Positions 3,519-51,240 of a stretch of 64,000 nucleotides of DNA are shown one piece after another. The stretch is from Candidatus Aenigmatarchaeota archaeon (lineage in GTDB: Archaea > Aenigmatarchaeota > Aenigmatarchaeia > Aenigmatarchaeales > JACQIB01): the NCBI GenBank assembly GCA_016198755.1, contig JACQIB010000004.1:170913-234912 (forward strand). Reading direction: 5' to 3'. The notes under the pieces were generated by a model. That model ran no database searches. It was not told the DNA's origin and worked only from the letters and a program-made list of their open reading frames with translations. A program made the position numbers and the translations under genes. Numbering within the stretch: the stretch's first letter is position 1; the number at the start of each line of letters is the position of its first letter.

Positions 3519-3604
3519 GCCCGGGTAGCTCAGCAGGAAGAGCGACTGGCTGTTAAATTGCGGAAACCAGTAGGTCGCAGGTTCGAGTCCTGCCTCGGGC
3601 GCCA
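3519..3604 (+). tRNA. tRNA-Asn(GTT) candidate with an insertion of about 10 nt (mini-intron) in the anticodon arm
   Basis: The sequence parses as acceptor GCCCGGG/CTCGGGC; D-arm GCTC-AGCAGGAA-GAGC; anticodon stem ACTGG/CCAGT enclosing 17 nt (CTGTTA A ATTGCGGAAA); T-arm GCAGG-TTCGAGT-CCTGC; G73 and an encoded CCA. If the intron sits at the canonical 37/38 site, the anticodon loop is CTGTTAA (GTT). Confidence 0.65.
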
Positions 3605-12212: not shown

Positions 12213-13955
12213 CTATAATAAAACCTTTGTACTCCTGAAAACCTTTTTCAGTTCTGTAAAAGGCAGGGTGTTTACAACATCCTTCTGCTCAAGCCAGCCT
12301 CTGCGCGCTGTTTTTATTCCCAGTTCAGTATACCAGAAAGTATTTTTATCATGTGAGTCTGTGTCAATTGCAAACTTGCAGTCGAATTCTCTTGCAAGCC
12401 TTATGTGATCATCCTTCAAGTCCAGCCTGTTTGGCTGCGAATCTATTTCTAAAACAACTCCCAGTTCAGCAGCTTTTGCAAAAACCTTTTTCAAATCCAA
12501 ATCAAAAGGCTTTCTCCGTGTTATTAACCTTCCTGTTGGGTGGCCCAAAATTGAAATTAATCCTGTTTCCATTGCTGCTAGCACGCGAGCAGTGATTTTT
12601 TCCTCCGGAGCTTTAAACCCTGAATGAATAGAACCAACAACAATATCCAGCTTTTTCAGCAAACTATCAGGATAGTCAAGAGATCCGTTTCCTTTAATGT
12701 CTACCTCACTTCCAGAAAGAATTTTTATTCCTTTAATTTTCTTCCTTGCCTCCTCTATTGCTTTCAGGTATTTTATCAGCCTCTCCTCGCTCATACCATG
12801 CGCTTGGTACTCTGATTTTGAATGGTCCGTTATTGCAATATACTCATACCCTAGGGATTTGGCTGCAAGAGCCATCTCCTCAATAGAATGGTTTCCATCA
12901 GACCAGTTTGTGTGCAAATGCAAATCCCCGCGGATATCGGAAAGTTTAACAAGTGCTGGCAGTTTTCCTGCAGCCGCAGCTTCAATCTCCCCATGATTCT
13001 CTCTCATCTCAGGCTCTATCCAGTGCAGCCCCAAAGTTTTGTAAACTTCCTCTTCTGTTTTTCCAGCCAATTGCTTTCCAGTTTTCCTGTCAAATAACCC
13101 ATATTCGGAGAGTTTATACCCCTTTGCAATAGCCATTGTCCTAAGCTCTACATTATGATCCATGTTTCCTGTAAAATACTGAAGAGCAGCTCCATAGCTT
13201 TCAGCTGGAAGTACCCTCAAGTCAGCCTGCAGCCCATTTTTCAGGACAACAGTGCTTTTTGTTGGCCCTTTAGAAAGAACCCTCCCAACTTCAGAAAGTG
13301 TTGTGAAAACTTCCATTACAGCAGCAGGCTTCCTGCTTATAACCAAAATATCCAAATCCCCCACAGTTTCCTTCCCCCTTCTTGTTGAACCAGCAATTTC
13401 CGCCTGTTCTACAGCCGGATTTTTCCTTAATTTTTCAACTATTTGCTTTGCAATCGGGAGCGCCTCGCCCAGCAAATAGCGTTCTTTGCTTTTCTTCAGC
13501 ATATCCACAGACTGCAGAATATTTTTTTCAGATTTTTCCCCGAAACCAGGCAAGTTTCTTAATTTCCCTGCTTTTGCAGCAGCAGCTAAATCCTGCACTG
13601 TTTTGACTTTTAGTTTCTTGTAAAGGAAAATAGCTTTCCTCGGCCCAATACCTTCCAGTTTCATTAGATTCATCAACCCTTCAGGTATCTTCTTTCCCAG
13701 CTGTTCTATCTTATTTATTCTTCCGGTTTTCAAATACTCCTCTATATTCGAGGAAATTGTTGCCCCAACCCCTGGTATCTCCTGCAGAGCTTTCACTCCC
13801 CCCTGCTTGTAAACTTCAGAAACCTCTGTAGGCAGGCTATCCAATACTCTGGCTACCTTCCTGTAAGCTATAGGCTCCCATTTTACTTCTAAAATATCCA
13901 GCATATCTGCTATTTCGTACAGCAGAGCAGCTATCTCTTTATTGGCTGAAGGCAT
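12213..13955 (-). CDS. polX: DNA polymerase X family protein with a C-terminal PHP phosphoesterase domain
   Basis: N-terminal HhH; nucleotidyltransferase motif GSTRRGKETVGDLDILV; C-terminal PHP motifs (LHLHTNWSDG, ITDHS). Confidence 0.9.
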   Translation of the reverse strand: MPSANKEIAALLYEIADMLDILEVKWEPIAYRKVARVLDSLPTEVSEVYKQGGVKALQEIPGVGATISSNIEEYLKTGRINKIEQLGKKIPEGLMNLMKLEGIGPRKAIFLYKKLKVKTVQDLAAAAKAGKLRNLPGFGEKSEKNILQSVDMLKKSKERYLLGEALPIAKQIVEKLRKNPAVEQAEIAGSTRRGKETVGDLDILVISRKPAAVMEVFTTLSEVGRVLSKGPTKSTVVLKNGLQADLRVLPAESYGAALQYFTGNMDHNVELRTMAIAKGYKLSEYGLFDRKTGKQLAGKTEEEVYKTLGLHWIEPEMRENHGEIEAAAAGKLPALVKLSDIRGDLHLHTNWSDGNHSIEEMALAAKSLGYEYIAITDHSKSEYQAHGMSEERLIKYLKAIEEARKKIKGIKILSGSEVDIKGNGSLDYPDSLLKKLDIVVGSIHSGFKAPEEKITARVLAAMETGLISILGHPTGRLITRRKPFDLDLKKVFAKAAELGVVLEIDSQPNRLDLKDDHIRLAREFDCKFAIDTDSHDKNTFWYTELGIKTARRGWLEQKDVVNTLPFTELKKVFRSTKVLL

Positions 13956-24875: not shown

Positions 24876-25005
24876 TGGTGGACTCGGTGGGATTTTCTCC
24901 AAACCCTTTTGGGGTTTGCAAAGACCTTTTCGGAAAAGGGATTTGCTTTGAACCCACAACCTCTTGCTTGCAAAGCAAGCGATCTTCCAGTTGATCTACG
25001 AGCCC
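24876..25005 (-). tRNA. tRNA-Ala(TGC) with a roughly 54-nt intron in the T-loop (non-canonical position about 59/60); CCA encoded
   Basis: The minus strand reads GGGCTCG TA GATC AACTGGAA GATC G CTTGC TTTGCAA GCAAG AGGTT GTGGG TTCAAA[G-intron-T] CCCAC CGAGTCC A CCA. The exons assemble into a perfect 76-nt cloverleaf. Confidence 0.8.
24904..24953. repeat. 50-nt sequence identical to 52268-52317 (core of the T-loop intron shared by tRNA-Ala and tRNA-Leu)
   Basis: Exact match: cccttttggggtttgcaaagaccttttcggaaaagggatttgctttgaac. Confidence 0.9.
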
Positions 25006-25131: not shown

Positions 25132-27945
25132 ATGAACAAATACATTAAAATTTTGTCTGCGGTTGTCGTTTTATTGCCATTGCTGTCTGTTGGAGCTTAT
25201 GCTATGGGCCAAACAGAAGTTACTAGTACAACAATTGATCCAACGAGATTCACTGGTATGTCAATTGCTCCGGCATTTGGATCTGATGGAATAACATATT
25301 TATCAGACACAACAGACATCTCAGCAGGCGTTTATGTTGGTGTAAATGGTGCTGACACAGAAAGCTGTAAATATAGTATAGATGGAGGGAATTCTTGGAA
25401 CGCTGCAAACTGGAATAGCGATACAGGAGAATGTTATGAAAACAATATTGACACAACCAATGCCCAGGAAGCTATACAAATGAGAATAAATGATAGTTCC
25501 GGAAATCCAGTTTCAATATCCACAGTTGGAGCAATAGTTGTGGATACTACAAAACCAACAACCACAGCCACTGCAGATGGATATGTTTTTGGTACATATG
25601 CAAATCAGGATGTTGGAGTTACACTCTCCTGTAATGATGGAGACGGAAGTGGATGTGATTTAGTAGGGTATAAAATAAGGTATTGCACAGATACTTCAGA
25701 TTTATGCTTTCCAGATTCACAATATGAAAATCCAGTTGTCATAAGCGATGAAGGTATTACGTACATAAGATTCTTTGGCAGAGATTATGTTAGTAATACA
25801 GAAGATGTGAAGAGCGAGAAAATAATAATAGACAAAACCATACCACAGGTATCAAGTGCAGAATCTTCAATGTCAACAATTACTGCAGATAATATTGGGA
25901 ATACTCTTACAATAACATTAACATACAATGAAGAGATGGATCAGGGCAGTTCGCCTGTTATAGAAGTGGCAAAAACAGGTGTTGAAGGACCATATTCTCT
26001 TGGACTTGAAAACCAGAGAGGCGGATGGACAGATTCTACACACTACGAGGCAGTTTATGACATTTCCTCTGTTGATGGGGAAGGAAATTATGATGTTAAT
26101 ATAGACTCGGCAAAAGACCTTGCAGGCAATACACAGGAATCAAGCTCAAATTCAAAATTATTCATGATAGATGCTGCTGCACCATCAACAACAGATGATA
26201 TGCCTATAGATTCTGGATGGACATCAGGTTCTGTAACTGTAATTTTAACAGCTACTGATGATGGTAGCGGTGTGTCTTCTATAAGATACTCAATTGATAA
26301 CGGGGAGTGGCAAATTGCAGATTTCTTAACTGGCAGAGACAGAGTTGAACAATCTATAAGCATAGAAGGAGACGGGAATCATTCTCTAACATACTATTCT
26401 GTTGATGTTTCAGGAAATCCTGAAGATCCGAAAACAATATATATTGGAATTGACTCTGCGACACCATCAACATCTGTAACAGGAAATGGGGGGGAATATA
26501 ATTTTGAGGATTGGAGCAATATACCTGTAACTGTTATGTTATCCTGTACAGACGAACCAAATGAGAACGGAAACTCAGGCTGCAACACAATATACTATAG
26601 GATGAATGAGGATGATGATGTTACAGAATATACTGGTCCTATATTATTTCCTGAAGATGGAACATACACACTATATTATTACAGTACAGACGGTGCTGGA
26701 AATTATGAGGATGAACAGGAGACTGATATATACGTAGATAGAACACCTCCTGTAATTTCTGTTTCAAGCCCAGCCAGCGGCACAACCTATACAGAGAATT
26801 CCGTTGAACTCAATTATGAAGTGTCAGATGATTTATCTGGTTTGAACCTAAGATCAGAAGTAAGTCCATGTTCATATTCATTGGATGATGGAGAAAATGT
26901 AAGTGCTACATGCGGCAAGTCAGTAACATTCTCTGAGCTTTCAAACGGTATGCATATGCTTACACTCTATGCAACAGATTATGTTGGAAATACAAACAAA
27001 AATCCTATATCATTCTATGTTATAGTTCCGCAGGGCAATCAGACAGTTCCATTCGATGAAAGCATGACTATAGATGGAGATATAAATCAAATAATATTCG
27101 CTGCCGGCAGCAATCTAAAAAATGTTATAGTGCCTTCAAACATAGCCGATGATAAAGAAATATTTATGGATTTCTCCTATATTATGAGCGATGGAAAGAT
27201 CACGCTCTCAAATGAATTTACTCTTGAGAGGAATTCAGATAACGATTATACTGTTACAATACCTTCAGGAACTGTTATAGATGGCGGGGCTTTATGGGAA
27301 GGAAATATGAATGTTCCAACTCTGAAGAGTATTTCAGACTATACAGCACCATCAGGATCCGTTGATATAGCAATAGATGTTGGAGCTGGGGTGTCTTTGA
27401 GTTTCTCAAAAGCAGTAAAGGTTGTAATAGGTGGAATGGCTGGCAAAAGAGCAGGATGGATTAGTGGAACAGGAGCATTGACAGACATAACAACTCTTTG
27501 TGACAGCGTGGATAATCCTACTAATATAGCAGCAGATGGAACAAGAGAATGCTATATAGATTCTGGTAGCGACCTTGTTATATGGACATATCACTTCACA
27601 ACATTTGCAGCTTACACTCCATCATCTACAACAACTTCAAATTCCAACAGCAATAGCGGAAGCGGTTCATATAATTACTTGGAATCTCCAACAACCACAA
27701 CACTTCCTCCAGTAGTTCCACCAACAGTACCCGAAACAACAACCACACAGGTATCTGAAACTCCAACAAACCCAAGCGAAACAACAACTACAACTTCTAC
27801 CACAACTACAATAAAACAGGGTCCATCTGGTCTTGCAACAGGATTGCCAACAAGTACTATAGTATCTGGCGCAGTGGTTTCTATTGCAGTATTACTTGGG
27901 TTGGTTTATTTTGGAAGAAATAGCATAAGAAAGAAATTCTTTTAA
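25132..27945 (+). CDS. Large cell-surface protein (about 937 aa) with a signal peptide, multiple Ig-like/beta-sandwich domains, a Thr/Ser/Pro-rich stalk and a C-terminal TM anchor
   Basis: Signal peptide ILSAVVVLLPLLSVGAYAMG; repeated D-x-S-G beta domains; TTTSNSNSNSGSG...TTTTSTTTT linker; C-terminal VVSIAVLLGLVYFGRNSIRKKFF. The tracked TTG at 25129 is probably not the true start. Confidence 0.7.
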   Translation: MNKYIKILSAVVVLLPLLSVGAYAMGQTEVTSTTIDPTRFTGMSIAPAFGSDGITYLSDTTDISAGVYVGVNGADTESCKYSIDGGNSWNAANWNSDTGECYENNIDTTNAQEAIQMRINDSSGNPVSISTVGAIVVDTTKPTTTATADGYVFGTYANQDVGVTLSCNDGDGSGCDLVGYKIRYCTDTSDLCFPDSQYENPVVISDEGITYIRFFGRDYVSNTEDVKSEKIIIDKTIPQVSSAESSMSTITADNIGNTLTITLTYNEEMDQGSSPVIEVAKTGVEGPYSLGLENQRGGWTDSTHYEAVYDISSVDGEGNYDVNIDSAKDLAGNTQESSSNSKLFMIDAAAPSTTDDMPIDSGWTSGSVTVILTATDDGSGVSSIRYSIDNGEWQIADFLTGRDRVEQSISIEGDGNHSLTYYSVDVSGNPEDPKTIYIGIDSATPSTSVTGNGGEYNFEDWSNIPVTVMLSCTDEPNENGNSGCNTIYYRMNEDDDVTEYTGPILFPEDGTYTLYYYSTDGAGNYEDEQETDIYVDRTPPVISVSSPASGTTYTENSVELNYEVSDDLSGLNLRSEVSPCSYSLDDGENVSATCGKSVTFSELSNGMHMLTLYATDYVGNTNKNPISFYVIVPQGNQTVPFDESMTIDGDINQIIFAAGSNLKNVIVPSNIADDKEIFMDFSYIMSDGKITLSNEFTLERNSDNDYTVTIPSGTVIDGGALWEGNMNVPTLKSISDYTAPSGSVDIAIDVGAGVSLSFSKAVKVVIGGMAGKRAGWISGTGALTDITTLCDSVDNPTNIAADGTRECYIDSGSDLVIWTYHFTTFAAYTPSSTTTSNSNSNSGSGSYNYLESPTTTTLPPVVPPTVPETTTTQVSETPTNPSETTTTTSTTTTIKQGPSGLATGLPTSTIVSGAVVSIAVLLGLVYFGRNSIRKKFF

Positions 27946-27947
27946 AT

Positions 27948-28271
27948 TTACTTCTGCCCGCGCGCCATAAGCTGTATTCTTATAGAATCTGGTCCAGTAA
28001 CAAACTCATTCACAACCTTATACCCTAGCGCCTCCATGCTTTTGTAGACCTCGTCCAAACTGGAAACCCTAAGAGCAATATGGTTCACAGACTGAGTTAT
28101 TGGAAGTTCTGTCTTGAACAGGGCTATTGTCTGGCTCCCAATAGAAAGGAAAACCTCCCCCTCATATCTGCCAGTTACTTTCAACCCCAGCCCTTTAGCA
28201 AAAAACTCTTCTGCTTTCTGTAAATCTGTTACATACAGGGCTATATGGTCTATCAATAAAGGCTCTGCCAT
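27948..28271 (-). CDS. VOC-family (glyoxalase I / bleomycin-resistance fold) protein
   Basis: IDHIALYVTDLQKAEEFF...VNHIALRVSSLDE are paired betaalphabetabetabeta modules. Confidence 0.7.
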   Translation of the reverse strand: MAEPLLIDHIALYVTDLQKAEEFFAKGLGLKVTGRYEGEVFLSIGSQTIALFKTELPITQSVNHIALRVSSLDEVYKSMEALGYKVVNEFVTGPDSIRIQLMARGQK

Positions 28272-28316
28272 AACCCTCCTATTATATAGGAGGAGGATTT
28301 AAACCTTGCTGGACTC

Positions 28317-29099
28317 CTATCTCATGTTCTTTCCCAAGAATTTGATACTGTTTATTTTTTTTCCATCCAGCTCAATCAGTGTATTAACATGCGAACCAAA
28401 TCCAGCATTCAGTGCAACCGCACCCTTTATTTTTATTTTTCCAAAGTGCTCATGTATATGCCCACCAACAGAGACCAACGGTTTGTTCCACTCTATAGCT
28501 TTTCTGACTAAAATTGAACCTGCATGTTTCCCATAAGCAGGTGAACGTTTATCCAGAACTTTGTCTAATTTTGTATTATACGGAACATTATGGGACAAAA
28601 AGATAACATGCCCCTTTGCTTTTTCAAACAGCCCCTTTAACTGGGAATAAGCTAAAACAAACTCTGCAGGCCCTTCAGGAGCTGTGGAAATTGCCCCTCC
28701 CCACACTGGATAACCTATAAGTGTATAGCCCATAAAAGTTTTTGATTCAAAACTAATATCCCTCAGATTTTTTAGTCCCTTTATCAGCTTTGAATATTCA
28801 TGGTCCCAGTTTCCCCGAACAATAAACACTGGCTTCCCAAGGGAATTCAGCTTCTTCAAAACTCTCCTCCCATCTGCAAAAGATTTTTTTATCAGCCCCT
28901 TTGCTTTTTTAACTCCAGTAATTTCAACCCAGCTTATTTCCCTTCCTTCCTTCAAACTTTTCCTATAGGAAATCCACTCATACTTTCTCATAGGATCCGA
29001 ACAAAAATCCCCCGGAGCTAACACAGCATCAAAATTCTTTACTCCAATTTTAGGAACCTGCCCATGCAAATCCCCTATCACTAAAAACCTGAATGCCAT
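28317..29099 (-). CDS. Calcineurin-like metallophosphoesterase
   Basis: GDLHG, GDF, GNWDH and GGHIHE motifs. Confidence 0.8.
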   Translation of the reverse strand: MAFRFLVIGDLHGQVPKIGVKNFDAVLAPGDFCSDPMRKYEWISYRKSLKEGREISWVEITGVKKAKGLIKKSFADGRRVLKKLNSLGKPVFIVRGNWDHEYSKLIKGLKNLRDISFESKTFMGYTLIGYPVWGGAISTAPEGPAEFVLAYSQLKGLFEKAKGHVIFLSHNVPYNTKLDKVLDKRSPAYGKHAGSILVRKAIEWNKPLVSVGGHIHEHFGKIKIKGAVALNAGFGSHVNTLIELDGKKINSIKFLGKNMR

Positions 29100-29148
29100 A
29101 CAAAAGATTAGCTATTTACCCATATTTAATAAACCACCTAACTTAATT

Positions 29149-29499
29149 ATGTGTATGAAAATTAGCATATTTCCTTTGGTAATTATCTTCCCCCTGATTG
29201 TTGCAGGCTGCACTTCCCAGAAACCAACAGAAACAACAACTAATACCCTAGTACAGCAGCTTTCAGAGCTCTGCATACAGGCCTGCAATAATGTTCTGGC
29301 TGCAGGCCAGCCTTTGGAAGAGGGGCCCTGTTTGTTGAATCCGATCCGTGAGGACAGAATATGGGTCTGCGATGTAGCACATAACCCACGGCAGCCCATA
29401 GACGATCTGCCTGAAAACCAGTGCTCTGCCTACATAAGCGGGGAAGCAAACCATTTTGTGGAAGTTACACCAGACTGTAAATTTATAAGAGCCAAGTAA
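29149..29499 (+). CDS. Small Cys-rich lipoprotein (lipobox IVAGC)
   Basis: Signal peptide plus lipobox; 8 Cys in the mature part. Confidence 0.45.
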   Translation: MCMKISIFPLVIIFPLIVAGCTSQKPTETTTNTLVQQLSELCIQACNNVLAAGQPLEEGPCLLNPIREDRIWVCDVAHNPRQPIDDLPENQCSAYISGEANHFVEVTPDCKFIRAK

Positions 29500-29912
29500 G
29501 TCGGTTGTTAGGAATTTTTGGAAATAGCTAAAGCTAAGCTGTAAAAATAGGTCGCGGCCGATGATATTAGCGCCCCGAATAAAAAATTTTGGAGGTGATC
29601 CAGCCCCACGTTCCCGTAGGGCTACCTTCTCATAGGAGTGCAGCCTGGCAAAATTATCCCTCTCAATTCACCTCAGTCCCCACTTGGGGCCCGCCTTTCT
29701 TTCTTTCATAGAGGAAAAATACAGACTACACTTCCTGTCTGTCAGTATTGCAGCTTTCACTGCAAAACATATGACTTAGCCTTTCTTGTAAGTCTCTGGC
29801 TCGACTCTTCCCATACCCATTGCTGGAAACGAAAAAAGCCTCGCCAAAGGCTCACTCAAATGGCTTGACAGGCGGTGTGTGCAAAGAACAGGGACGTATT
29901 CGGCGAACGAAT

Positions 29913-30701
29913 TCATGCTAGAAGCTTCGAAAAAGGTTTTATAATATTAATCAACTTATACACTGATTGATTAACAAGAACATCATTATATTCTTCCTTT
30001 ACAATATCTATAGCATCTTTTTGTATATTGCCTTCTAATATTGCTATCAATCTTACATAGGGATATTTTTGTCGAATTTTCATAGCTCTATAAGCAAGTT
30101 CTACGGCTTGCAAACGTTTCCTATAATTGAAATTCATTTGCTTTACCTCAATTATTATTTTGGGTATATTTTCAGAAGGCAAGGCAAAATCTACTACAAA
30201 ATTTCTATTGGTCCTCACTAGGGCATGAAACTTATGTGAAATGCCCAATTTCTGAAAGATTTCTATATATCTTTTTTCTTGTTCTGTAGGACCTTTTATT
30301 ATTGCACCTTTCAGAGATCTTTCTTTAGACGCCTTTAAACTCATTTTTCTTGCGCGTTCAGTATCTCTAAAAGTGCCGCGTTCGGAAATTTCATAATACC
30401 TGCGTATTAAGATTTCCCTAGAAGGAATTCTTTGCATGCATTTAATTTCTTCAAACACTTTGTTTATTACTTTTTCGTCTACACTTTTTCTAAATCCTTT
30501 CTCTATATTATAGACTGTGCCTTGACTCTTCCCTATAAACTTTGCTAATTGCCACTGACTCATATTCAATATTAAACGTAGAATCAGCAATCTCTGCGGT
30601 TTTGTATATATAATTTCAGGTTTCAGTTTCCTTAAACTGTCTGTTGTTCTATATACTTCATCACAGAGATTTTTTAATTTTAGCTTGTTTATGGTAATCA
30701 C
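29913..30701 (-). CDS. Intron-encoded putative homing endonuclease: N-terminal XRE-type HTH plus C-terminal PD-(D/E)XK nuclease-like domain (262 aa)
   Basis: HTH MSQWQLAKFIGKSQGTVYNIEKG; nuclease motif FVVDFALP...IIIEVKQ (D...E-x-K). Sits entirely inside the rRNA intron, with the stop overlapping the exon junction. Confidence 0.55.
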   Translation of the reverse strand: MITINKLKLKNLCDEVYRTTDSLRKLKPEIIYTKPQRLLILRLILNMSQWQLAKFIGKSQGTVYNIEKGFRKSVDEKVINKVFEEIKCMQRIPSREILIRRYYEISERGTFRDTERARKMSLKASKERSLKGAIIKGPTEQEKRYIEIFQKLGISHKFHALVRTNRNFVVDFALPSENIPKIIIEVKQMNFNYRKRLQAVELAYRAMKIRQKYPYVRLIAILEGNIQKDAIDIVKEEYNDVLVNQSVYKLINIIKPFSKLLA

Positions 30702-30757
30702 CGATATTATATTATATCGGTAACTACTATTTAACCCTTTACAGAGCTTCTAACTTT
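29916..30757 (-). mobile_element. 16S rRNA intron (about 840 nt) in the 3' domain, carrying an HTH + PD-(D/E)XK ORF
   Basis: Exon sequence ...GGCGAACGTCAT is interrupted and resumes ...GAATTCGTTCGCCGAATACGTCCCTG (the equivalent of E. coli position about 1360-1380). Confidence 0.7.
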
Positions 30758-31059
30758 ATGACGTTCGCCTACTATGAATTCCGGCTTCATGTGGGCGAGT
30801 TGCAGCCCACAATCTGGACTAAGATTGGGTTTAGGGGGTTAGCTTTGCCTTTCGGCATTGCATCCCATTGTCCCAACCATTGTAGGACGCGTGTAGCCCA
30901 GAGAATTCGGGCCGTACGGACCTACCGTCGCCCACTCCTTCCTCTGCTTTAGCAGCAGCGGTCCCGCCATTGTGCTCTCTCCCCGGAGGGAAAGGTGGCA
31001 AATGGCAGCGTGGGTCTCGCTCGTTAACGGACTTAACCGCACGCCTCAAGGTACGAGCT

Positions 31060-31219
31060 TTCTCGTCTTAGCAGCCCTCATACAAAACATTATCTTACTT
31101 TTCTCTATGTTTTACATAATTAGCATTCCACCAACGTCGTATCAGTATTAAGTTTGAATACTGGTTGCATATCGTTGTTGAAATTTTTCAATATCCCAAT
31201 TAAATTGAGACTGCCAAGA
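31060..31219 (-). other. Insertion of about 155 nt (ORF-less intron, likely BHB-type) in the 16S near the E. coli 1050-1070 region
   Basis: The conserved CATGGCCGTCGTCAGCTCGTACC is split: ...catggccatcgtca | 150 nt AT-rich | agctcgtaccttgagg. Flanking cttggcag/ctgctaag can pair to close the insert. Confidence 0.6.
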
Positions 31220-31763
31220 TGACGATGGCCATGCAACTCCTCTCAGCTTGTCTGGTAAACCCGTTAGGCTGACCCTCATTCTGCTGTCTTCTCTGGTAAG
31301 ATGTCCGGTGTTAAATCCAATTGAACCGCATCCTCCACTCATTGTGTGTTCCCCCGCCAATTCCTTTAAGTTTCAGCCTTGCGGCCGTACTCCCCAGGTG
31401 GCCCGCTTAACATCTACACTTCGGCACTGCATGTTCACGTAGAACGTGCAACACCAAGCGGGCATCGTTTACGGCTGGGACTACTGGGGTATCTAATCCC
31501 AATCGCTCCCCCAGCTGTCGCCCCTCACTGTCAGACTCGTTTTCGGTAGACGCCTTCGCCACAGGTGGTCCTCCACGGATTAAAGGATTTAACCCCTACA
31601 CGTGGAATACCTCTACCGTCTCCCGATCTCAAGGCTTGGAGTATCTCCAGCGCGCCTGACAGTTAGCTGCCAGATTTCACCAGAGACTTTCAAGCCCAGC
31701 TACGGGCGCTTTAGACCCAATAAACGCGATAGCCATTTGGACCGCGGGTATTACCGCGGCGGC

Positions 31764-31795
31764 GTGTGCGAACAAAGTCTACTGACTTTGAACAT
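31764..31795 (-). other. Hairpin insertion of about 30 nt inside the universal 515F/530-loop sequence of the 16S
   Basis: GTGCCA | tgttcaaagtc-agtag-gactttgttcgcaca | CGCCGCCGCGGTAATAC. The insert forms a 7-bp perfect stem, caaagtc/gactttg. Confidence 0.6.
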
Positions 31796-32249
31796 GGCAC
31801 CCGTCTTACCCAGTCCTTATTCGCCTAGGTTTTTAGCCTAAGCAAAAGCTCGTGCAAAGCACGAGCACTCGAGGTTCCCTTCTCACACGCTAATGCATTG
31901 GAAAGTTTTCGCTCCTGCTGCGACCCGTAGGCCCTGCGCTCATGTCTCAGAGCGCATCTGGAGGCTCACACTCTCATGTCCCCTACCCGTCACAGGCTTG
32001 TCAGTTTTATAAAGCAGGTAGCTTATGCTACCAAAAATTATTTTGGCAAACTAAGTTTGCCTATGCACTTTACACTGACAACAACCTGATAGGCCGCAGT
32101 CCCATTCTATGGCGCCGGAGCTTTCACTTTTGGTGCATTCCAGCATCCAAAAACTATGGGGCATTAGCCTCACTTTTGCGTTCACTTTCAAAAGAAAGTG
32201 GAATTCGCAAGATTATTCCCCACCATAGAGTAGGTTAACTACGTGTTAC

Positions 32250-32921
32250 TCAGCAGTGCGCCGAGGGCAAGAGCGGATTAAATAGAACCTTACCAGTCTT
32301 TTTACAATAAAAATAGTTTTTAAATTCCTTAGAAAGACATCTTACTTTTTCTAACTTTAGTGGATGTTTAAATTTTATTATTCTACAAAACTTTCTAAAA
32401 TTTTTAGCACCTTTTATTCGCCACCAATATACATCGTTTTTTCCATAAACTTTTGATACATGAATACCATATGTTTCTAATAATTCTTTACTCCATATGC
32501 AAAAATCCTTAGATTTAATTTGTAGTTCTATTACAGGATATTCATATATAGACATCATGGTCTTTCTCTTATACCTTTGGACTTCTTTGAATACGGAACA
32601 ATCACCATCAAAAAATCCTATAAGAAAATTCATCTTTTCTTTTCTATTTATGTGCACTGGTGGAGTGATGTCATGAGACTTTTTCCCTGGTTTTATATGA
32701 TAAAGTCTCTTAAATTTTTCGTATAGCTTACGATCACTTACCCTTATCTGAAATACTCTTTTTCTTAATTTGTAAGTAACCTTGTTTTTTGCAAATTTTT
32801 GAAGATTTTTTACTATATCATCTCTGAAGCGCTTGTTATTTGTGTAGACATAGACATACGGTCTATATTTTTCTAAATGACCATCTGCAGCTATTAAACC
32901 GGCCATATAAGAAAATTTCAT
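32250..32921 (-). CDS. LAGLIDADG-family homing endonuclease (double-motif, intron-encoded)
   Basis: Two LAGLIDADG motifs are present: MAGLIAADGHL and LIGFFDGDCSV. Confidence 0.85.
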   Translation of the reverse strand: MKFSYMAGLIAADGHLEKYRPYVYVYTNNKRFRDDIVKNLQKFAKNKVTYKLRKRVFQIRVSDRKLYEKFKRLYHIKPGKKSHDITPPVHINRKEKMNFLIGFFDGDCSVFKEVQRYKRKTMMSIYEYPVIELQIKSKDFCIWSKELLETYGIHVSKVYGKNDVYWWRIKGAKNFRKFCRIIKFKHPLKLEKVRCLSKEFKNYFYCKKTGKVLFNPLLPSAHC

Positions 32922-32992
32922 ATATTATTCTATGACGATATACAACTTATAGATTTCTATGTTTCGTTAGTAGTGTTCTACTTAATCCTTTA
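32277..32992 (-). mobile_element. 16S rRNA intron (about 715 nt) near the 5' end (after ...CATGCGAGCCGAGAGGGG), carrying a LAGLIDADG endonuclease ORF
   Basis: Exon resumes ...CCGCTCTTGCCCTCGGCGCACTGCTGAGTAACACGT. The ORF reads through the 3' junction to a TGA stop inside the exon. Confidence 0.75.
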
Positions 32993-33474
32993 CCCCTCTC
33001 GGCTCGCATGGATAAATCGAACCCCGATAACGGCTATCTCCGGCAGGATCAACCGGAATTAAATTAGGGGGGATTTCACAAACCTAATGGTTTGCGTTCC
33101 CTGTTTTCTTACTCGGAGTTTCGCTAACATCAGCCACGACTTCTAATCATGAACTCATCCGCACCCGCGCGCGCTTCCAAATTTCCCTCGCACTGGTCCG
33201 CTCATTGCTGCGTAAGCAGCTCGTTTGTATTTTTTCCCACAGGTTGGAACTGGGATGCTCATAGCGAGTTTACACTCTTGCTTGCAGCCCACACAGAAAG
33301 AGATGGAACAGCAGCGCCGTACCATTCATTTTGCCTGTGAGTACAGACTATAATAGCGTTATCGAAGGCTTTTAAAGGTTACTGCGGATGCCGTTGGCTG
33401 GGGTTTAAAAGGTTTTCTTACGACCACTTTCTTATGGCAACCTCAAAACCACAGCCACAATACATGTTTTTGCC

Positions 33475-33936
33475 CTAAAACCTGACAGCACCCTCCAAAA
33501 CTTTCAGCAAATTCACAGAGCGCATTTTGATTGTTTTTGTATGTAAACCTGGATTGAAAAAAACAAACTCGTTTTCCAGAACAGCATTGCTCAAATACGT
33601 TTTTAATTCCGTTTTCAAGCCAAAAGGCCCCACAGCCCCTATCTCCACTCCAGCTATCCTTTCAACTTCCTGCGGGTTTGCAAGCCCAATATTTTTGCAG
33701 TTTTCTAACAGGCACAGTATTTTGGTGTCTGCCCTGCTGTCTCCTGGAACTAAAACCAGAATAAACTTTCCAGCATCTGTTTTAAAAATTAAAGACTTAA
33801 CACCAGCGCGCGCAGATGGCAGGCCGCGCACACGAGATGCATCTTCTGATGTATAAACATGCTCATGCTCTGTCTCTTCGAATGGGATTTCTTTCTCTTT
33901 CAAAAGCTGTACTATTTTGTTGTATACAAAGAACAT
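33475..33936 (-). CDS. YbaK/ProX-type aminoacyl-tRNA deacylase
   Basis: 153 aa; YbaK-like pattern (GxxxKSLIFKTD...VLVLVPGDSR...). Confidence 0.75.
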   Translation of the reverse strand: MFFVYNKIVQLLKEKEIPFEETEHEHVYTSEDASRVRGLPSARAGVKSLIFKTDAGKFILVLVPGDSRADTKILCLLENCKNIGLANPQEVERIAGVEIGAVGPFGLKTELKTYLSNAVLENEFVFFNPGLHTKTIKMRSVNLLKVLEGAVRF

Positions 33937-34057
33937 TTTTAGAAGTATGCTGGGCAGGTATAAAAGCTTGGTGGGCTAAATTTTTAGCTGTATGATATAC
34001 AAGTGTAGGTATAACAGAAAAGTAAGCTTTATATACTACTTAATAGTAATAATTAAT

Positions 34058-34459
34058 ATGTCTGGAGATACATCTAATAGTCCTGAAAATGCTAGGAATA
34101 GATTTATAGTTGCACGTCATGTTCAGGGAGGAATAAGATCGCCTGTTCTACATGGTGATAGCGCATTCTATAAAGAAGATGCTATGAGAAGGGCTGAAGA
34201 GCTTAATCATGGAACCTGGCCTTTGGGAGATTCCGGCTGGGGAGTTTATAGTGTGAGGGAGGCTGGAAACAGAATTGCTGATTCTGTCAGAACTTTTTTA
34301 GGAGGCGGAAGCTATGCTATCGGAAATCCAACAGCATATGGAGGATTCTATTTACATAAAAAAGATGGTGCAGTACCTGTTTTTGGATGGAGATCACAGG
34401 TTGAAAAGGCTGCAGCCAGATCAGATCTTAGGGTACTTGTATTGACACCTGTTTTCTGA
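34058..34459 (+). CDS. Hypothetical protein (about 133 aa from ATG 34058); paralog of 15027-15434
   Basis: Shared motif block with 15027-15434. The upstream part of the tracked ORF (33992-) is AT-rich junk and probably not coding. Confidence 0.35.
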   Translation: MSGDTSNSPENARNRFIVARHVQGGIRSPVLHGDSAFYKEDAMRRAEELNHGTWPLGDSGWGVYSVREAGNRIADSVRTFLGGGSYAIGNPTAYGGFYLHKKDGAVPVFGWRSQVEKAAARSDLRVLVLTPVF

Positions 34460-34493
34460 TAGTAAGCAGTTTAAATATTTAGCTGTAAAATAC

Positions 34494-35369
34494 TTGTTTA
34501 GTGGACTTATGTTAAGCGAAACAGTCTGGAACAGTAACCTGAAAGAACTGAAAATAGACTATCTATACCATTTGGGGCTAGATAATACAGAAGATTTAAA
34601 AGGCACTTTCAAAGATACTAGATTTGTATGCATGTTCGGGAGCGCTCTAAGAGCTGAAATGTTTGCAAAAAAAGCAGGAAAACAACTTGGCTTTACTGTT
34701 GAGGGACCAATAGGAAAAACTGAGAGATTTTCACTTTACAAAATAGGGCCAGTTATTTCTGTTTCACATGGTATGGGCATGCCTTCTCTCCTGATTTTGC
34801 TTCATGAGATAACAAAATTGCTACAGTATGCTGAAGCCATAGATGTAGCCTATATAAGAATTGGAACCTGCGGGGGTGTTGGTATTGAACCGGGAACTGT
34901 TGTTATAACAACTGAAGCTGTGAATGAAAAATTGGAAGCTGTTTTTGAGCATATGGAACTGGGAAAAGTTCGCAGATATATAACAAAACTTGATAATAAG
35001 CTGGCTGAAAGTATTTTGAAGAGCGCAGGCGATATTAAGGCTGTGCTTGGAAAAACAATGGGCACTGATGATTTTTATGAGGGTCAGGGAAGGCTGGATG
35101 GAGCTTTACAACCTCGATATAAAGCAGAGGAGAAAATGGAATATCTGAAAAAAGCTGCTGAGATTGGGGTTTTGAATATAGAGATGGAAGCAACAGCTTT
35201 TGCTACCTTTTGCTCCAGAGCAGATATAACTGGAGCTATAGTGGATGCCGCATTGTTAGACAGGCTGAAAGTGGATCAGATTTATGTTGGGAAAGAAGAA
35301 CTGGCTGGATTTTCTGAAAAGGCACAGCAAGTTGTTCTGAACTATATAAAAAGCAAAATAAACGGCTGA
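34494..35369 (+). CDS. Nucleoside phosphorylase of the PNP/UDP family (uridine phosphorylase-like)
   Basis: About 290 aa; core GSALRAE...VISVSHGMGMPS...RIGTCGG...EMEA, typical of PNP_UDP_1. Confidence 0.7.
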   Translation: MFSGLMLSETVWNSNLKELKIDYLYHLGLDNTEDLKGTFKDTRFVCMFGSALRAEMFAKKAGKQLGFTVEGPIGKTERFSLYKIGPVISVSHGMGMPSLLILLHEITKLLQYAEAIDVAYIRIGTCGGVGIEPGTVVITTEAVNEKLEAVFEHMELGKVRRYITKLDNKLAESILKSAGDIKAVLGKTMGTDDFYEGQGRLDGALQPRYKAEEKMEYLKKAAEIGVLNIEMEATAFATFCSRADITGAIVDAALLDRLKVDQIYVGKEELAGFSEKAQQVVLNYIKSKING

Positions 35370-35456
35370 GCTGGCTAAGGCTTTTATTCTGCTTTCCCTA
35401 GGATTATGTATGGGAAAAACTATTAAAGTTTTTAACACCTCCAAAACCAAGAGGTT

Positions 35457-37277
35457 TTGATTGTGGCCAAGACACAGCTCTCGTTCTTTGAGATACTCTC
35501 GGTAACTATAGGCACTATACTTACAACAGCAGTGTTTTTGTTGCCAGGCCAGCTGGCTGCTGAGCATGGATTTTCCTCCCTATATATTTGGATTGCTATT
35601 GCTCTGTTAACAATACCAATAGGGCTTTCTTTTGCTGAATTGGCTGGTATGTTTTCACAGAGCGGAGGGCCTTTCATTTTTGTCAGGAAAGCTTTCGGAG
35701 ACTTTGCAGGATTTGTTGCAGGCTGGAGCACATGGGTTTACTCTACAATTGCTATTGCTGCACTTGCAAAAATCACTGGAAGTTATTTTTCCTTTCTTTT
35801 TCCACTTTCAGGATGGGGGATGGCTCTATTTTCTGTTGGGATTATAGGGATTTTTACCCTGATTAACCTGTTAGGGGCAAAACAGGGAGCTAAGGTAGAT
35901 ATGCTAATGATTTGGGTTTCAATTGGAATTGCGCTGCTTTTTGTTGTACTTGGCTTTGGAACAGTGGATATAACTAGGTTTTCAACTCTTCCTTCTGCTT
36001 CTTTGCCAGCGCTTGCTTTAGCTGGTATACTGGCTATGGAGCTGTTTATTGGCTGGGAATCTGCAACAATTATATCAGAAGAAGTTAAAAGTCCGAAAAG
36101 GCTCATACCTCGCGCTTTAGTATGGACAATTTTTATTGCAACAATAGTTTATCTTTCTGTTATTTTCGTTTTCCTTGGGAATGCTGATATTGGAAAAGTT
36201 TCTGAGAGCCTGAACCCGCTTGCTGAAACAGCAAAAAGCTTTGCTGGAGCTTTTGCGCCCGTGTTTTCAGTAGGAGCTGTAATAATAAGTCTTGCTGTTG
36301 TAAACAGCTGGATTCTGACTGTTGCCAGACTTCCATATGCAATGGCCAAAGGGAAGCTTTTCTTAAAATATTTTGAAAAAGAAAACAAGTACGGAGCTCC
36401 ATCTCATGCTCTGCTTCTGCAGTTCCTTTTTGCTTCTGCAGCTGTATTCTTCGATCTGGAGCATATTCTGCAGGTTTTGCTTTCAGTTGCCTTTATATTG
36501 TATATTGTAACCATGGCTGCCTTAATCAAATTGAGGAAAACAAATGAAAGCAGCTTTAAAGTCCCTAAAATACTTCCCTACATTGGAATTGCACTTCTGC
36601 TGGGAATGCTGATTTTTATTCCATGGGAAATACTTGCTGTGGGCTTGGTTTTGCTTTTTACTGGCCTTCCGGCTTTCTTTGTTGTCAAGCTTTTCACGGA
36701 CAGGGCTTTTGTGGAAGCTTACTGGGACAGGCTTGGAGGATTAATGGATGTCTATTTCCGCAGCCTGCTGGAAGGAGATATACTTGAAAAAGTTATATTA
36801 AATGCTGATATAAAGAAAAACCATACTGCACTGGATTATGGATGCGGTTCAGGGCATACAACAGATGATGTTGCAAAGCTGGCTGGGAAAGTTGTGGCCG
36901 CAGATCTATCTGTAAACCAGCTGCATAAAGCTGTTTCAAGCATACATAAAAAGGGTAATCTTACAAACATAATTTTTGTAAAACTCTCAAAACCAGCTCC
37001 TTTTGAAAAAGAAACCTTTGATAGAATTGTCTGCACACTTGCAACAAACTATTTTGTAAACCCTATAAAAGAATTTACAGCTCTTGCAAGGGTTTTGAAG
37101 CGGGGAGGAAAAGCCAGCTTTTTGTCTGTTCGCGCTGCAGGTATTCCGGAACATGATTTCCTGCACAAAGATGGCTCAATAAAATCTGTAATGATAAAAG
37201 CAGGATTTTCCAATATTGAAATAGAAAGGCTGAAAAAAGGACACAGGGAATATATGTTCATTGTTGCTGGCAAATAG
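35457..37277 (+). CDS. Fusion protein: APC-superfamily amino acid/polyamine permease (about 12 TM, residues 1-430) plus C-terminal class I SAM-dependent methyltransferase domain
   Basis: Hydrophobic N-terminal two-thirds with an APC-like GxxxAELA-type segment (FAELAGMFSQSGGPF). The C-terminus has SAM-binding motif I LDYGCGSGHTT and a post-I acidic residue. TTG/GTG start. Confidence 0.7.
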   Translation: MIVAKTQLSFFEILSVTIGTILTTAVFLLPGQLAAEHGFSSLYIWIAIALLTIPIGLSFAELAGMFSQSGGPFIFVRKAFGDFAGFVAGWSTWVYSTIAIAALAKITGSYFSFLFPLSGWGMALFSVGIIGIFTLINLLGAKQGAKVDMLMIWVSIGIALLFVVLGFGTVDITRFSTLPSASLPALALAGILAMELFIGWESATIISEEVKSPKRLIPRALVWTIFIATIVYLSVIFVFLGNADIGKVSESLNPLAETAKSFAGAFAPVFSVGAVIISLAVVNSWILTVARLPYAMAKGKLFLKYFEKENKYGAPSHALLLQFLFASAAVFFDLEHILQVLLSVAFILYIVTMAALIKLRKTNESSFKVPKILPYIGIALLLGMLIFIPWEILAVGLVLLFTGLPAFFVVKLFTDRAFVEAYWDRLGGLMDVYFRSLLEGDILEKVILNADIKKNHTALDYGCGSGHTTDDVAKLAGKVVAADLSVNQLHKAVSSIHKKGNLTNIIFVKLSKPAPFEKETFDRIVCTLATNYFVNPIKEFTALARVLKRGGKASFLSVRAAGIPEHDFLHKDGSIKSVMIKAGFSNIEIERLKKGHREYMFIVAGK

Positions 37278-37307
37278 GCTTATATTCTGGGCAGGCAAAA
37301 CATCTCT

Positions 37308-37781
37308 ATGCTTGTTAAAGACCATATGACTAAAAAGGTTATTACAGCAGAACCTGAGGAAAATCTGGGCTCTATTATAAGGAAGTTTGTAAAATATGAT
37401 ATTTCAGGGATTCCTGTTGTTGACGATAAAAAGAAGGTATTGGGAATTGTAACTGAAACAGATGTTGTGAAAGCAATAGACGTTTTCACACCTAAAATAC
37501 ACTTTGATACTGAAACTAGCTTTGCCTTAGTTCTGGCTTTTTTGAAAAAGGGGAAGGGTATGAAACCGTTTAAGGAAGAAGTAAGGAGGGGAGAATCCGT
37601 GAAAGTTAGGGAATTTATGACATCTCCTGTGCGTACTATAGATTCCCACAAAACAGTTCTGGAAGCTGCCCAAATGATGAACAACTATGGAATAAACAGG
37701 ATACCTGTTGTGGAAAGGGAAAAATTGGTTGGTATAATTGCCCGCGCAGATGTTATCAGAGCTTTCGGCAGCGGACAGTAG
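37308..37781 (+). CDS. CBS-domain pair protein
   Basis: Two CBS repeats (VKDHMTKKVITAEPEENL...IPVVDD and VREFMTSPVRTIDSHKTV...IPVVEREKLVGIIARADVIRA). Confidence 0.8.
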   Translation: MLVKDHMTKKVITAEPEENLGSIIRKFVKYDISGIPVVDDKKKVLGIVTETDVVKAIDVFTPKIHFDTETSFALVLAFLKKGKGMKPFKEEVRRGESVKVREFMTSPVRTIDSHKTVLEAAQMMNNYGINRIPVVEREKLVGIIARADVIRAFGSGQ

Positions 37782-37816
37782 ATGAGATTTTTATTCTGGT
37801 AATATAAGAATTTATA

Positions 37817-38380
37817 ATGGATATGAAAGGTTTCTGGAAACTTATTAAGAAAGAGGAAATGAAATATGGTAACCTGCTCCTGCTTTTAGTAAGCCTAATT
37901 GTTGCCTATATAATTCTAACCCCGTCACTTTTCGGCTCTCTGGTTGAAGGAATAAAAGAAACTAGGGAATATGGGCTGTTGGGAGTGTTTATAGCAGGAT
38001 TGTTTTTCTCATATGGATTGACAACGCCTGTTTCTATTGTTGTTTTGTATGCTTTTGGCTCTGTTTTTAACCCGCTTTCCGTAGCAGCCATTGGAGCTGC
38101 AGGCGCTGCCATATCAGACTATATAATTTACTATTTTGTAAAGAGGAGTTTTTCAAAAGAATTTGATAAAGGCTTGAAAAAATTTGGAAAACTATCAAAA
38201 TGGCTCCATTACTTTGCCCCTGTTATAGCAGGATTGATAATAGCCAGTCCCCTGCCGGACGAGCTTGGAGCAGCTTTTTTAGGGATTGTTAAGTTTGAGA
38301 AACGCAGGTTTTTTGTGTTCGCCTATTTTGCAAACTTCTTTGGAATACTTTTGCTGGCTTGGCTGGGAAGTGCTATCTAG
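37817..38380 (+). CDS. Small polytopic membrane protein (DedA/YqaA-like)
   Basis: Four to five TM segments; a Gly-rich re-entrant-like motif. Confidence 0.45.
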   Translation: MDMKGFWKLIKKEEMKYGNLLLLLVSLIVAYIILTPSLFGSLVEGIKETREYGLLGVFIAGLFFSYGLTTPVSIVVLYAFGSVFNPLSVAAIGAAGAAISDYIIYYFVKRSFSKEFDKGLKKFGKLSKWLHYFAPVIAGLIIASPLPDELGAAFLGIVKFEKRRFFVFAYFANFFGILLLAWLGSAI

Positions 38381-50144: not shown

Positions 50145-50213
50145 CAAAAGATATCCATGGAAGTTATAACTATAATACTTTGGTTTTTATACTTAATGCA
50201 TAAAGCTTCTCTT

Positions 50214-51212
50214 ATGATTGAAATTGATGGAAATGATGCTGGAGGGCAGCTTGTCAGAACCGCTGTTTCTCTGAGCGCCATAACAGGAAAGGCTTTTAGG
50301 ATTGTTAACATACGCGGGGCGCGACCCCAGCCTGGACTGAAAGCACAGCATATGGAAGGTATTGGAACTGTGGCAGAACTCTGTTCTGCAAAAGTTTCGG
50401 GGTTGGAGTTAGGCTCAAAAGAGCTGGAATTTATTCCTGGAAAGCTGGAACCAAAAAATTTGGAGGTTAAAATCTCTACAGCAGGTTCAATTGGATTAGT
50501 TTTGCAGTCTCTGTTAATTGATGCAACAAAGTTTGAAAAGCCTATTAATGTTAAGTTTTCAGGCGGTGGAACATGGGGAAAGTGGGCCCCACCCATGCTT
50601 TATCTGGAAAAGGTTTTTCTGCCCTGCTTATGTTCAGGTTTAAAAACAAAAGTTAAGAGAGAAGGTTTCTATCCTCGTGGTGGGGCAGAAGTAGAGGTTG
50701 AAATAACTCCAATTAAAGTAAAATCTATAGAGATTCTGGAGCATGGAAAGCTGCTGGAACTGAATATTTTCTCTGTTGCTGCCCAATTGGAAGGGAAAAA
50801 AGTAGCTGAGAGGCAGGCTGAGGCTGCGCGCAGTTTCCTAGAGGAGAGGATTGGGGTAAAGGTTTCTGTGAAAACAACCTATTCTGCAGCAGAAAATCCT
50901 GGCTCTGGTATTTTGATTGTTGGGAAGTGTGAAAATTCAGTGATTGGAGCTGACTCTATTGGAGAGCTAAATGTTCCAGCAGAGGAGGTTGGAAAGAGAG
51001 CTGGAAAGGATTTTTTTAATGAGTTTGCAAACGGGGCTGTAGACAGGCACTGCGCTGACATGCTTTTGCCCTATATTGCTCTGGCTGGAAAGGGAAGAAT
51101 AAAAACATCAGAGATAACCCAGCATATTGTTACCAGCATAGAACTAATAGAAAAGTTTCTGCCTGTAAAGTTTTCGATAGACAGGGAAAAGAAGATTATT
51201 TCTGTGCTATGA
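50214..51212 (+). CDS. rtcA: RNA 3'-terminal phosphate cyclase
   Basis: N-terminus MIEIDGNDAGGQLVRTAVSLSAITGKAFRI is the typical RtcA start. The conserved His-containing adenylylation region is consistent with RtcA (...GSGILIVGKCENSVIGADSIGE...DRHCADML). Confidence 0.8.
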   Translation: MIEIDGNDAGGQLVRTAVSLSAITGKAFRIVNIRGARPQPGLKAQHMEGIGTVAELCSAKVSGLELGSKELEFIPGKLEPKNLEVKISTAGSIGLVLQSLLIDATKFEKPINVKFSGGGTWGKWAPPMLYLEKVFLPCLCSGLKTKVKREGFYPRGGAEVEVEITPIKVKSIEILEHGKLLELNIFSVAAQLEGKKVAERQAEAARSFLEERIGVKVSVKTTYSAAENPGSGILIVGKCENSVIGADSIGELNVPAEEVGKRAGKDFFNEFANGAVDRHCADMLLPYIALAGKGRIKTSEITQHIVTSIELIEKFLPVKFSIDREKKIISVL

Positions 51213-51240
51213 AAGCTATTTAAAGTTTTCTTACTGTTTA

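Follow-up and report, generated by a model that had tools for sequence, protein, structure and literature searches.

A very probable hairpin-type bulge-helix-bulge intron at position 520 of the 16S rRNA gene of a DPANN archaeon

The 16S rRNA gene and its inserts

The 64-kb stretch of DNA analyzed here (the window), from an archaeon assigned by NCBI to Candidatus Aenigmarchaeota (DPANN), carries an archaeal 16S rRNA gene that is about 3.47 kb long instead of about 1.5 kb because it hosts multiple inserts (Table 1). The ends reported by Rfam were forced, and the true extent of the gene was taken from landmarks, i.e., the 5' sequence TCCGGTTGATCCTGCCGG at 33057 and the 3' sequence GGATCACCTCC at 29601..29591. 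A search of the window for a second 16S gene found none. Alignment to two other interrupted 16S genes, one on a metagenome contig (L036) and one in a related metagenome-assembled genome (L068), delimited inserts of 721, 29, 61, about 157, 845, and about 139 nt in addition to the 31-nt insert that is the subject of this study.

Several of these inserts have the features of archaeal bulge-helix-bulge (BHB) introns. The 845-nt insert, located in the loop of helix 43, is a textbook example, and it encodes a 262-aa protein (29913..30701) whose sole recognizable feature is an HTH_3 domain; since this protein is devoid of LAGLIDADG or any other known homing-endonuclease domain, it may belong to a novel class of proteins carried by introns. 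A BHB core is also present in the 721-, 61-, and 157-nt inserts. The first of these interrupts helix 6 (V1) and carries a LAGLIDADG_3 ORF, the last few codons and stop of which run about 19 nt beyond the predicted 3' splice site into the exon; a word-index search for homologs of the encoded protein matched only itself. The insert of about 157 nt (31062-31218, minus strand) follows GCAUGGCCAUCGUC and displays a BHB core of CGUC/GACG with a 10-bp inner helix. Canonical cuts would leave 2-3 extra bases there relative to the universal CGUCAGCUCG, and L068 has a variant of this insert. Unlike the introns, the 29-nt (32177..32205) and about 139-nt (29631..29769) inserts on the minus strand are without a BHB and extend hairpins in variable regions, and they are probably genuine retained expansion segments.

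BHB splicing also concerns tRNA in this window. In the tRNA-Asn(GUU) gene, the canonical 37/38 site is occupied by a BHB intron of 10 nt, the removal of which in the calibrated register (see below) yields a 76-nt cloverleaf. If functional, this tRNA must be spliced, which implies a splicing endonuclease. ARAGORN miscalls the gene as an 86-nt tRNA-Leu(taa). In addition, tRNA-Ala(UGC) (24880-25005, minus strand) contains an insert of about 55-60 nt within its T-loop; this insert has a long inner helix (CAAA(U)CCCUUUU / AAAAGGGUUUG), and a portion of the T-loop sequence is repeated in it. Because no canonical BHB register gives a normal T-loop, this insert is either a non-canonical intron or the mark of a disrupted gene.

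The 31-nt insert, UGUUCAAAGUCAGUAGACUUUGUUCGCACAC, occupies positions 31794..31764 of the minus strand between GGGUGCCA and GCCGCCGCGGUAA, so that the gene reads ...GGGUAAGACGGGUGCCA-UGUUCAAAGUCAGUAGACUUUGUUCGCACAC-GCCGCCGCGGUAAUACC... in this region. The insertion point corresponds to E. coli A520/G521, in the 530 loop of helix 18 (GUGCCAGCMGCCGCGGUAA, positions 515-533), and the Rfam alignment has 39 nt where the model has 8, right after GGUGCCA. The boundary is unique, as every other cut changes the mature sequence and removal of these 31 nt restores GUGCCA↓GCCGCCGCGGUAA exactly (the arrow marks the junction). The insert is AT-rich, in a window with a GC content of 40%. It folds into a perfect 7-bp stem, CAAAGUC/GACUUUG (31790..31784 paired with 31779..31773), closed by the 4-nt loop AGUA; perfect stems of at least 7 bp form in just 0.7% of shuffled 31-mers.

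A previous sequence-only reading had drawn attention to this site as a perfect 7-bp hairpin inside the 515F primer site and 530 loop. Both the hairpin and its location are borne out by the present analysis, and the flanking conserved blocks were correctly placed, as the alignment to the Rfam covariance model agrees with them. The range given for the insert, 31764-31795, captured its position and included one base too many, since 31795 is the exon base A520, and the loop had been misread as "agtag". That reading also regarded the 515F match as destroyed. The site GTGCCAGCMGCCGCGGTAA is indeed split 6 + 13 by the insert, and the statement is slightly overstated because the 13 bases at the 3' end of the primer still match contiguously. 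Look-ups of two spurious ORFs across the site (79 aa and 98 aa) gave no record, and the junction-spanning antisense "protein," used as a query for other interrupted 16S genes, returned zero candidates.

Table 1. Coordinates in the window of the 16S rRNA gene, of the predicted intron at position 520 with the elements of its BHB, and of further intron-bearing features
Feature	Coordinates	Strand	Basis or remarks
Archaeal 16S rRNA gene, about 3.47 kb	about 29591..33059	-	Rfam RF01959, 1035 bits; landmarks; L036/L068 alignments
Predicted 31-nt mini-intron	31764..31794	-	Rfam alignment, BHB fit; same insert in L068 at about 12533..12563
BHB outer helix, 5' strand, exon 1 CGG (3 bp with CCG 31760..31762)	31801..31803	-	
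BHB central 4-bp helix, 5' strand, exon 1 GUGC (E. coli 515-518)	31797..31800	-	In minimum-energy fold
5' 3-nt bulge CA↓U	31794..31796	-	Predicted 5' splice site 31795 (A520)/31794
Intron inner helix: G-C pair, 2x2 UU/UU internal loop, 7-bp stem, AGUA loop	31770..31793	-	
BHB central helix, 3' strand, intron GCAC pairing with exon GUGC	31766..31769	-	
3' 3-nt bulge AC↓G	31763..31765	-	Predicted 3' splice site 31764/31763 (G521)
BHB outer helix, 3' strand, exon 2 CCG	31760..31762	-	
845-nt textbook BHB intron, helix-43 loop	29911..30755	-	Outer helix 8 bp, central UCAU/AUGA, two 3-nt bulges, inner helix 10 bp
721-nt BHB-type intron, helix 6 (V1), LAGLIDADG_3 ORF 32250..32921	32269..32989	-	Absent from L068
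61-nt BHB mini-intron, outer helix 8 bp	32007..32067	-	Absent from L068, confirming junction
tRNA-Asn(GUU), 10-nt BHB intron 3556..3565 at canonical 37/38 site	3519..3604	+	

The BHB motif at position 520 and its recurrence

By definition, a BHB has a helix of 4 nt that is bordered on each side by a 3-nt bulge, and the splice sites are located within these bulges (PMC7714728). The 31-nt insert and its flanks form a canonical BHB whose register coincides exactly with the conserved junction (Table 1), and a minimal BHB at this fixed junction arises in about 1.1% of shuffled or random inserts. Cleavage was assumed to follow nucleotide 2 of each bulge, a register calibrated on the tRNA-Asn intron and on 11 junction-verified introns. 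The flanking helices, h and h', are both present and are weaker than in textbook cases, as the inner helix starts beside the 5' bulge with just one G-C pair, and a 2x2 UU/UU loop separates this pair from the 7-bp stem. An unconstrained fold keeps the central helix and the hairpin, while its outer exon-exon pairs shift register and its 3' bulge is smaller; the canonical BHB is 1.8-5.0 kcal/mol costlier than this fold in a context of 61-72 nt. A loose BHB scan of the whole locus that allowed introns of up to 1300 nt gave 1759 matches and was uninformative, so tests at fixed junctions were used instead.

The gene directly upstream of the 16S gene led to a syntenic contig of a close relative, L068 (GCA_053536735.1), the genome of which was assembled independently. 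Its upstream protein is 78% identical to that of the window and its 16S exons are 97.8% identical, and it carries the same 31-nt insert at the same place, differing at two bases only. These two bases are the partners of the pair that closes the stem, C31784-G31779, which has changed from C-G to U-A in a compensatory manner. The presence of the insert in L068 with such a change rules out an assembly artifact and shows selection on the hairpin. More distant homologs of the upstream neighbor (P0004, P0006) were found in non-syntenic contexts with no 16S gene close by.

Overall, the 16S gene of L068 (L068:12047-17708) is even longer, at 5.66 kb. Its inserts number at least 16; they contain five LAGLIDADG ORFs and include 9 or more mini-inserts of 30-38 nt. 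By landmark counting, its introns split the 341F (after about U343), 781, and 806R (after about U793) sites, and further split sites lie at 919, about 982, about 1093, about 1385, and about 1397. The insert sets of the window and L068 are almost disjoint, and therefore each genome supplies uninterrupted alleles for the other. At an exon identity of 97.8%, this near-disjointness implies very rapid intron gain and loss.

The uninterrupted alleles fix the junctions of 14 other inserts in the two 16S genes, and we scored these inserts for the BHB rule. All four pairs of the central helix were found in the exact BHB register in 11 of the 14, each at a level reached by no more than 1% of shuffles, and the remaining 3 had three of the four pairs. 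The inner helix starts directly after the bulge in every one of the 14, and the first base of the 3' bulge is A in 13. Many have little or no outer helix, which is why we describe their BHB as relaxed. Indeed, when a strict rule required 2 bp or more of outer helix, most of the verified mini-introns were missed (4 of 22), and scoring of the core in register was used in its place. The 520 insert fits the template of this family.

We also looked for inserts at the same junction in distant genomes. Among 185,579 species genomes (one per species), the pattern GGTGCCA-N(12-42)-GCCGCGGTAATAC, corresponding to inserts of 9-39 nt, gave 33 matches, which equals the chance expectation and includes no true insert: 30 were not rRNA, and 3 were Halorubrum 16S genes with a second GGTGCCA upstream. 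A scan of viral contigs gave 13 matches, all due to chance. A metagenome scan with a more specific pattern that admitted inserts of up to 44 nt gave 7 matches, 2 of which are genuine inserts in archaeal 16S genes. These two, on contigs L036 and L040, measure 40 nt and 42 nt, respectively, and interrupt the gene at the identical junction.

The 16S exons of L036 and L040 are 75.7% and 73.7% identical to those of the window and 81.5% identical to each other, and given these values (73.7-81.5%), the three sequences represent three distant lineages. The interiors of their inserts have no common sequence. A common core, CGG / GUGC / CA↓U - hairpin - GCA(C/U) / A(C/A)↓G / CCG, is nevertheless found in all three, with the 3' strand of the central helix reading GCAC in L068 and L040 and GCAU, with a G-U wobble, in L036. 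What is conserved at locus 520 across the four sequences (window, L068, L036, and L040) is thus the motif and not the sequence. In L036, the 16S gene belongs to a normal 16S-23S-5S operon and the 520 insert is the sole insert of the gene; as it is the only intron there, no neighboring homing intron is now present that could carry it by co-conversion. L040 has a second insert of 46 nt on the minus strand after GGUGGCGAA, near E. coli position 722 and thus at or near the published locus 722. It has a 5' bulge and a 9-bp helix, is without a 3' bulge at the junction defined by L036, and misses the strict BHB rule.

Predicted excision and alternative explanations

Considering the exact-register BHB in the window and in one close and two distant relatives, we regard the 520 insert as very likely to be a short, ORF-less, hairpin-type archaeal BHB intron that is excised by the endonuclease-ligase pathway. 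Before splicing, exon GUGC (515-518) would pair with intron GCAC near the 3' end of the intron to give the 4-bp central helix, exon CGG would pair with exon CCG to give the outer helix, and the intron hairpin would serve as the inner helix, leaving the bulges CA↓U and AC↓G. A tRNA-splicing endonuclease of the EndA family would then cut each bulge after nucleotide 2, and an RtcB-type ligase would join the exons into the universal GUGCCAGCCGCCGCGGUAA and probably circularize the 31-nt intron. The pseudoknotted decoding-site fold of helix 18 would become possible only after exon joining.

This order of events fits the function of the region. The decoding site contains the A520-G529 tertiary pair and the 524-526 pseudoknot, G530 touches the codon-anticodon helix, and EF-G contacts positions 515, 517, and G530 (PMC9014874). 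A hairpin retained between A520 and G521, inside this universally conserved compact fold, should be harmful. Because positions 515-518 and 522-524 serve as BHB partners, the BHB would exist in the precursor alone and would have to be undone for helix 18 to fold.

No gene for a splicing endonuclease or ligase was seen among the 30 ORFs scanned in the window, a result that carries no information, as just 64 kb of the genome are covered. The window does encode RtcA (RNA 3'-terminal phosphate cyclase) at 50157..51212. It is directly followed by a 325-aa P-loop protein with weak matches to AAA_17/AAA_18 (window 50157-52218, plus strand), and the two may form an RNA end-healing pair.

An alternative that shares the cleavage step is that the BHB is cut and the exons are not religated, so that the 16S rRNA works as two fragments in the manner of bacterial intervening sequences. 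The cleavage signal expected for such a process is identical to that of a spliced intron. The products of BHB cleavage, a 2',3'-cyclic phosphate and a 5'-OH, are nonetheless the normal substrates of RtcB, and in characterized archaeal rRNA introns the exons are ligated and the intron is circularized. A permanent break between A520 and G521 would also sever the A520-G529 pair and the pseudoknot network, and with at least 5 such introns in the window gene and at least 12 in L068, the rRNA would be left in many pieces. We therefore find this alternative very improbable.

The sequence-only reading had left two possibilities side by side, i.e., that the insert is spliced as a mini-intron or that it is tolerated as an expansion, and had suggested a search for a BHB fold and a comparison with related genomes. 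The former revealed the BHB in exact register with the junction, and the latter the shared insert of L068 and those of L036 and L040 at the same junction. Hence the mini-intron option gains support from a BHB that is shared with a close relative and with two distant ones, and the expansion option is disfavored. If the hairpin stayed in place, it would stick out of the mature small subunit at the 530 loop. A stable hairpin with a compensatory change would be expected of a retained structured element too, and the 29-nt and about 139-nt inserts of the same gene, which are BHB-less, resemble helix extensions. However, the 520 site belongs to the universally conserved core of the decoding site and not to a variable region (PMC9014874), and it bears a BHB splicing signal. 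Furthermore, three unrelated inserts keep a 4-nt complement of exon 515-518 followed by a 3-nt bulge at the junction, which counts against an expansion because an expansion has no reason to keep such a core, and the same splicing geometry is seen in 11 of the 14 other junction-verified inserts. On this evidence, retention of the hairpin in the mature rRNA is very improbable.

It is more improbable still that the insert stems from misassembly or that this rRNA copy is dead. The degree to which the gene is interrupted is unusual, and the site lies outside every independent assembly of this exact organism: Logan contigs retrieved via four window proteins end within the 16S exons in all cases, and 31379..31942 is covered by none of them. 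Against an artifact stand the same insert in the independently assembled L068 and the analogous inserts on two unrelated metagenome contigs. A pseudogene is at odds with exons that, although interrupted, reach 1035 bits with the archaeal SSU model and are 97.8% identical to those of L068, and with the lack of a second 16S gene in the window.

Finally, group I introns are known at position 516 of eukaryotic nuclear SSU rRNA, which would favor a self-splicing group I or group II intron. Group I introns occur in DPANN rRNA genes as well (PMC6125680), but a length of 31 nt is far below that of a catalytic core, whose conserved paired elements span hundreds of nucleotides, and a search with Rfam intron families of positions 26000..38000 gave no match at E <= 0.01, so that this explanation is effectively refuted by size.

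Implications and comparison with known systems

Taken as a spliced intron, the 520 insert defines a new insertion locus for archaeal rRNA introns inside the 530 loop of the decoding site, with a mechanism that is ordinary for archaea. We found no report of an intron at locus 520 in the DPANN, CPR, and archaeal rRNA-intron literature within a search that left most subscription journals outside. The locus is rare: the 185,579 species genomes gave no case and the metagenome scan gave two. In addition, it would widen the host range of short hairpin BHB introns beyond thermophilic Crenarchaeota, by a DPANN archaeon and two other uncultured lineages.

There are practical consequences as well. The 515F/519R site, which is used in most amplicon surveys, is split by the 520 intron, and together with the split 341F and 806R sites in L068 this means that such organisms would be under-counted or their amplicons discarded as chimeras. 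Automated 16S callers misplace the ends of such genes, as Rfam did here.

The window and L068 also make a useful pair for the study of intron gain and loss in nature. One conceivable reading, which we hold to be rather doubtful, is that ORF-less BHB mini-introns of 30-60 nt turn over rapidly in Aenigmarchaeota and spread without a homing endonuclease of their own, for example by reverse splicing or by arising anew wherever the exon provides half of a BHB. Consistent with it, mini-introns occur at about ten or more conserved 16S sites, exons that are 98% identical host nearly disjoint intron sets, and locus 520 holds unrelated sequences in three distant lineages and is the sole intron site of the gene in L036. 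Were this reading true, the 520 intron would represent convergent colonization of the site, and by pairing with 515-518 it might in addition hold back the 530 pseudoknot from folding before the endonuclease has cut.

A precedent in terms of location is the group I intron at position 516 of eukaryotic SSU rRNA. In both cases, the conserved 530-loop region is interrupted, and the site evidently tolerates an intron if it is spliced. Those introns are, however, self-splicing ribozymes of several hundred nucleotides that reside in another domain of life and 4 nt away.

With regard to the host, the 520 intron resembles the rRNA insertions of CPR and DPANN lineages, which are likewise numerous within a gene, occur in ultrasmall, probably symbiotic organisms, include some with LAGLIDADG ORFs, and affect primer-based surveys in a similar way (PMC11270868, PMC6125680, PMC7906910). 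CPR genomes carry group I or group II introns or intervening sequences of the RNase III type, whereas the 520 intron has a BHB and would depend on the archaeal protein splicing machinery.

In terms of motif, the counterpart is the pre-tRNA intron at 37/38, a canonical hBHBh' substrate of EndA to which the same definition of the BHB applies (PMC7714728). The cleavage register at 520 is that of the tRNA-Asn intron of the window. The difference is that the host of the 520 intron is an rRNA and that its outer helix has only 3 bp. As this outer helix is not native to the mature RNA, the BHB at 520 must be a transient fold of the precursor.

The best match overall is with the short (<50 nt) hairpin ("HP") BHB introns of archaeal 16S genes (Jay & Inskeep 2015, PMC4496867). 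These occupy 7 of the 13 known intron loci and come mainly from Thermoproteales, with Desulfurococcales and Aigarchaeota as further hosts. Like them, the 520 intron and its counterparts are ORF-less, 30-45 nt long, and built as a hairpin flanked by a BHB core that comes partly from the exon; they also lie in a conserved stretch used for "universal" primers, and the 520 intron co-occurs with homing-endonuclease-encoding introns in the same gene. Locus 520 is, however, outside the 13 published loci, namely 374, 548, 722, 781, 803, 901, 908, 919, 978, 1093, 1205, 1213, and 1391 (PMC4496867). Moreover, its hosts are a low-GC DPANN archaeon and two unclassified archaea and not thermophilic Crenarchaeota, and the 520 intron is rich in A and T, in contrast to the mean of 57% GC for the published introns.
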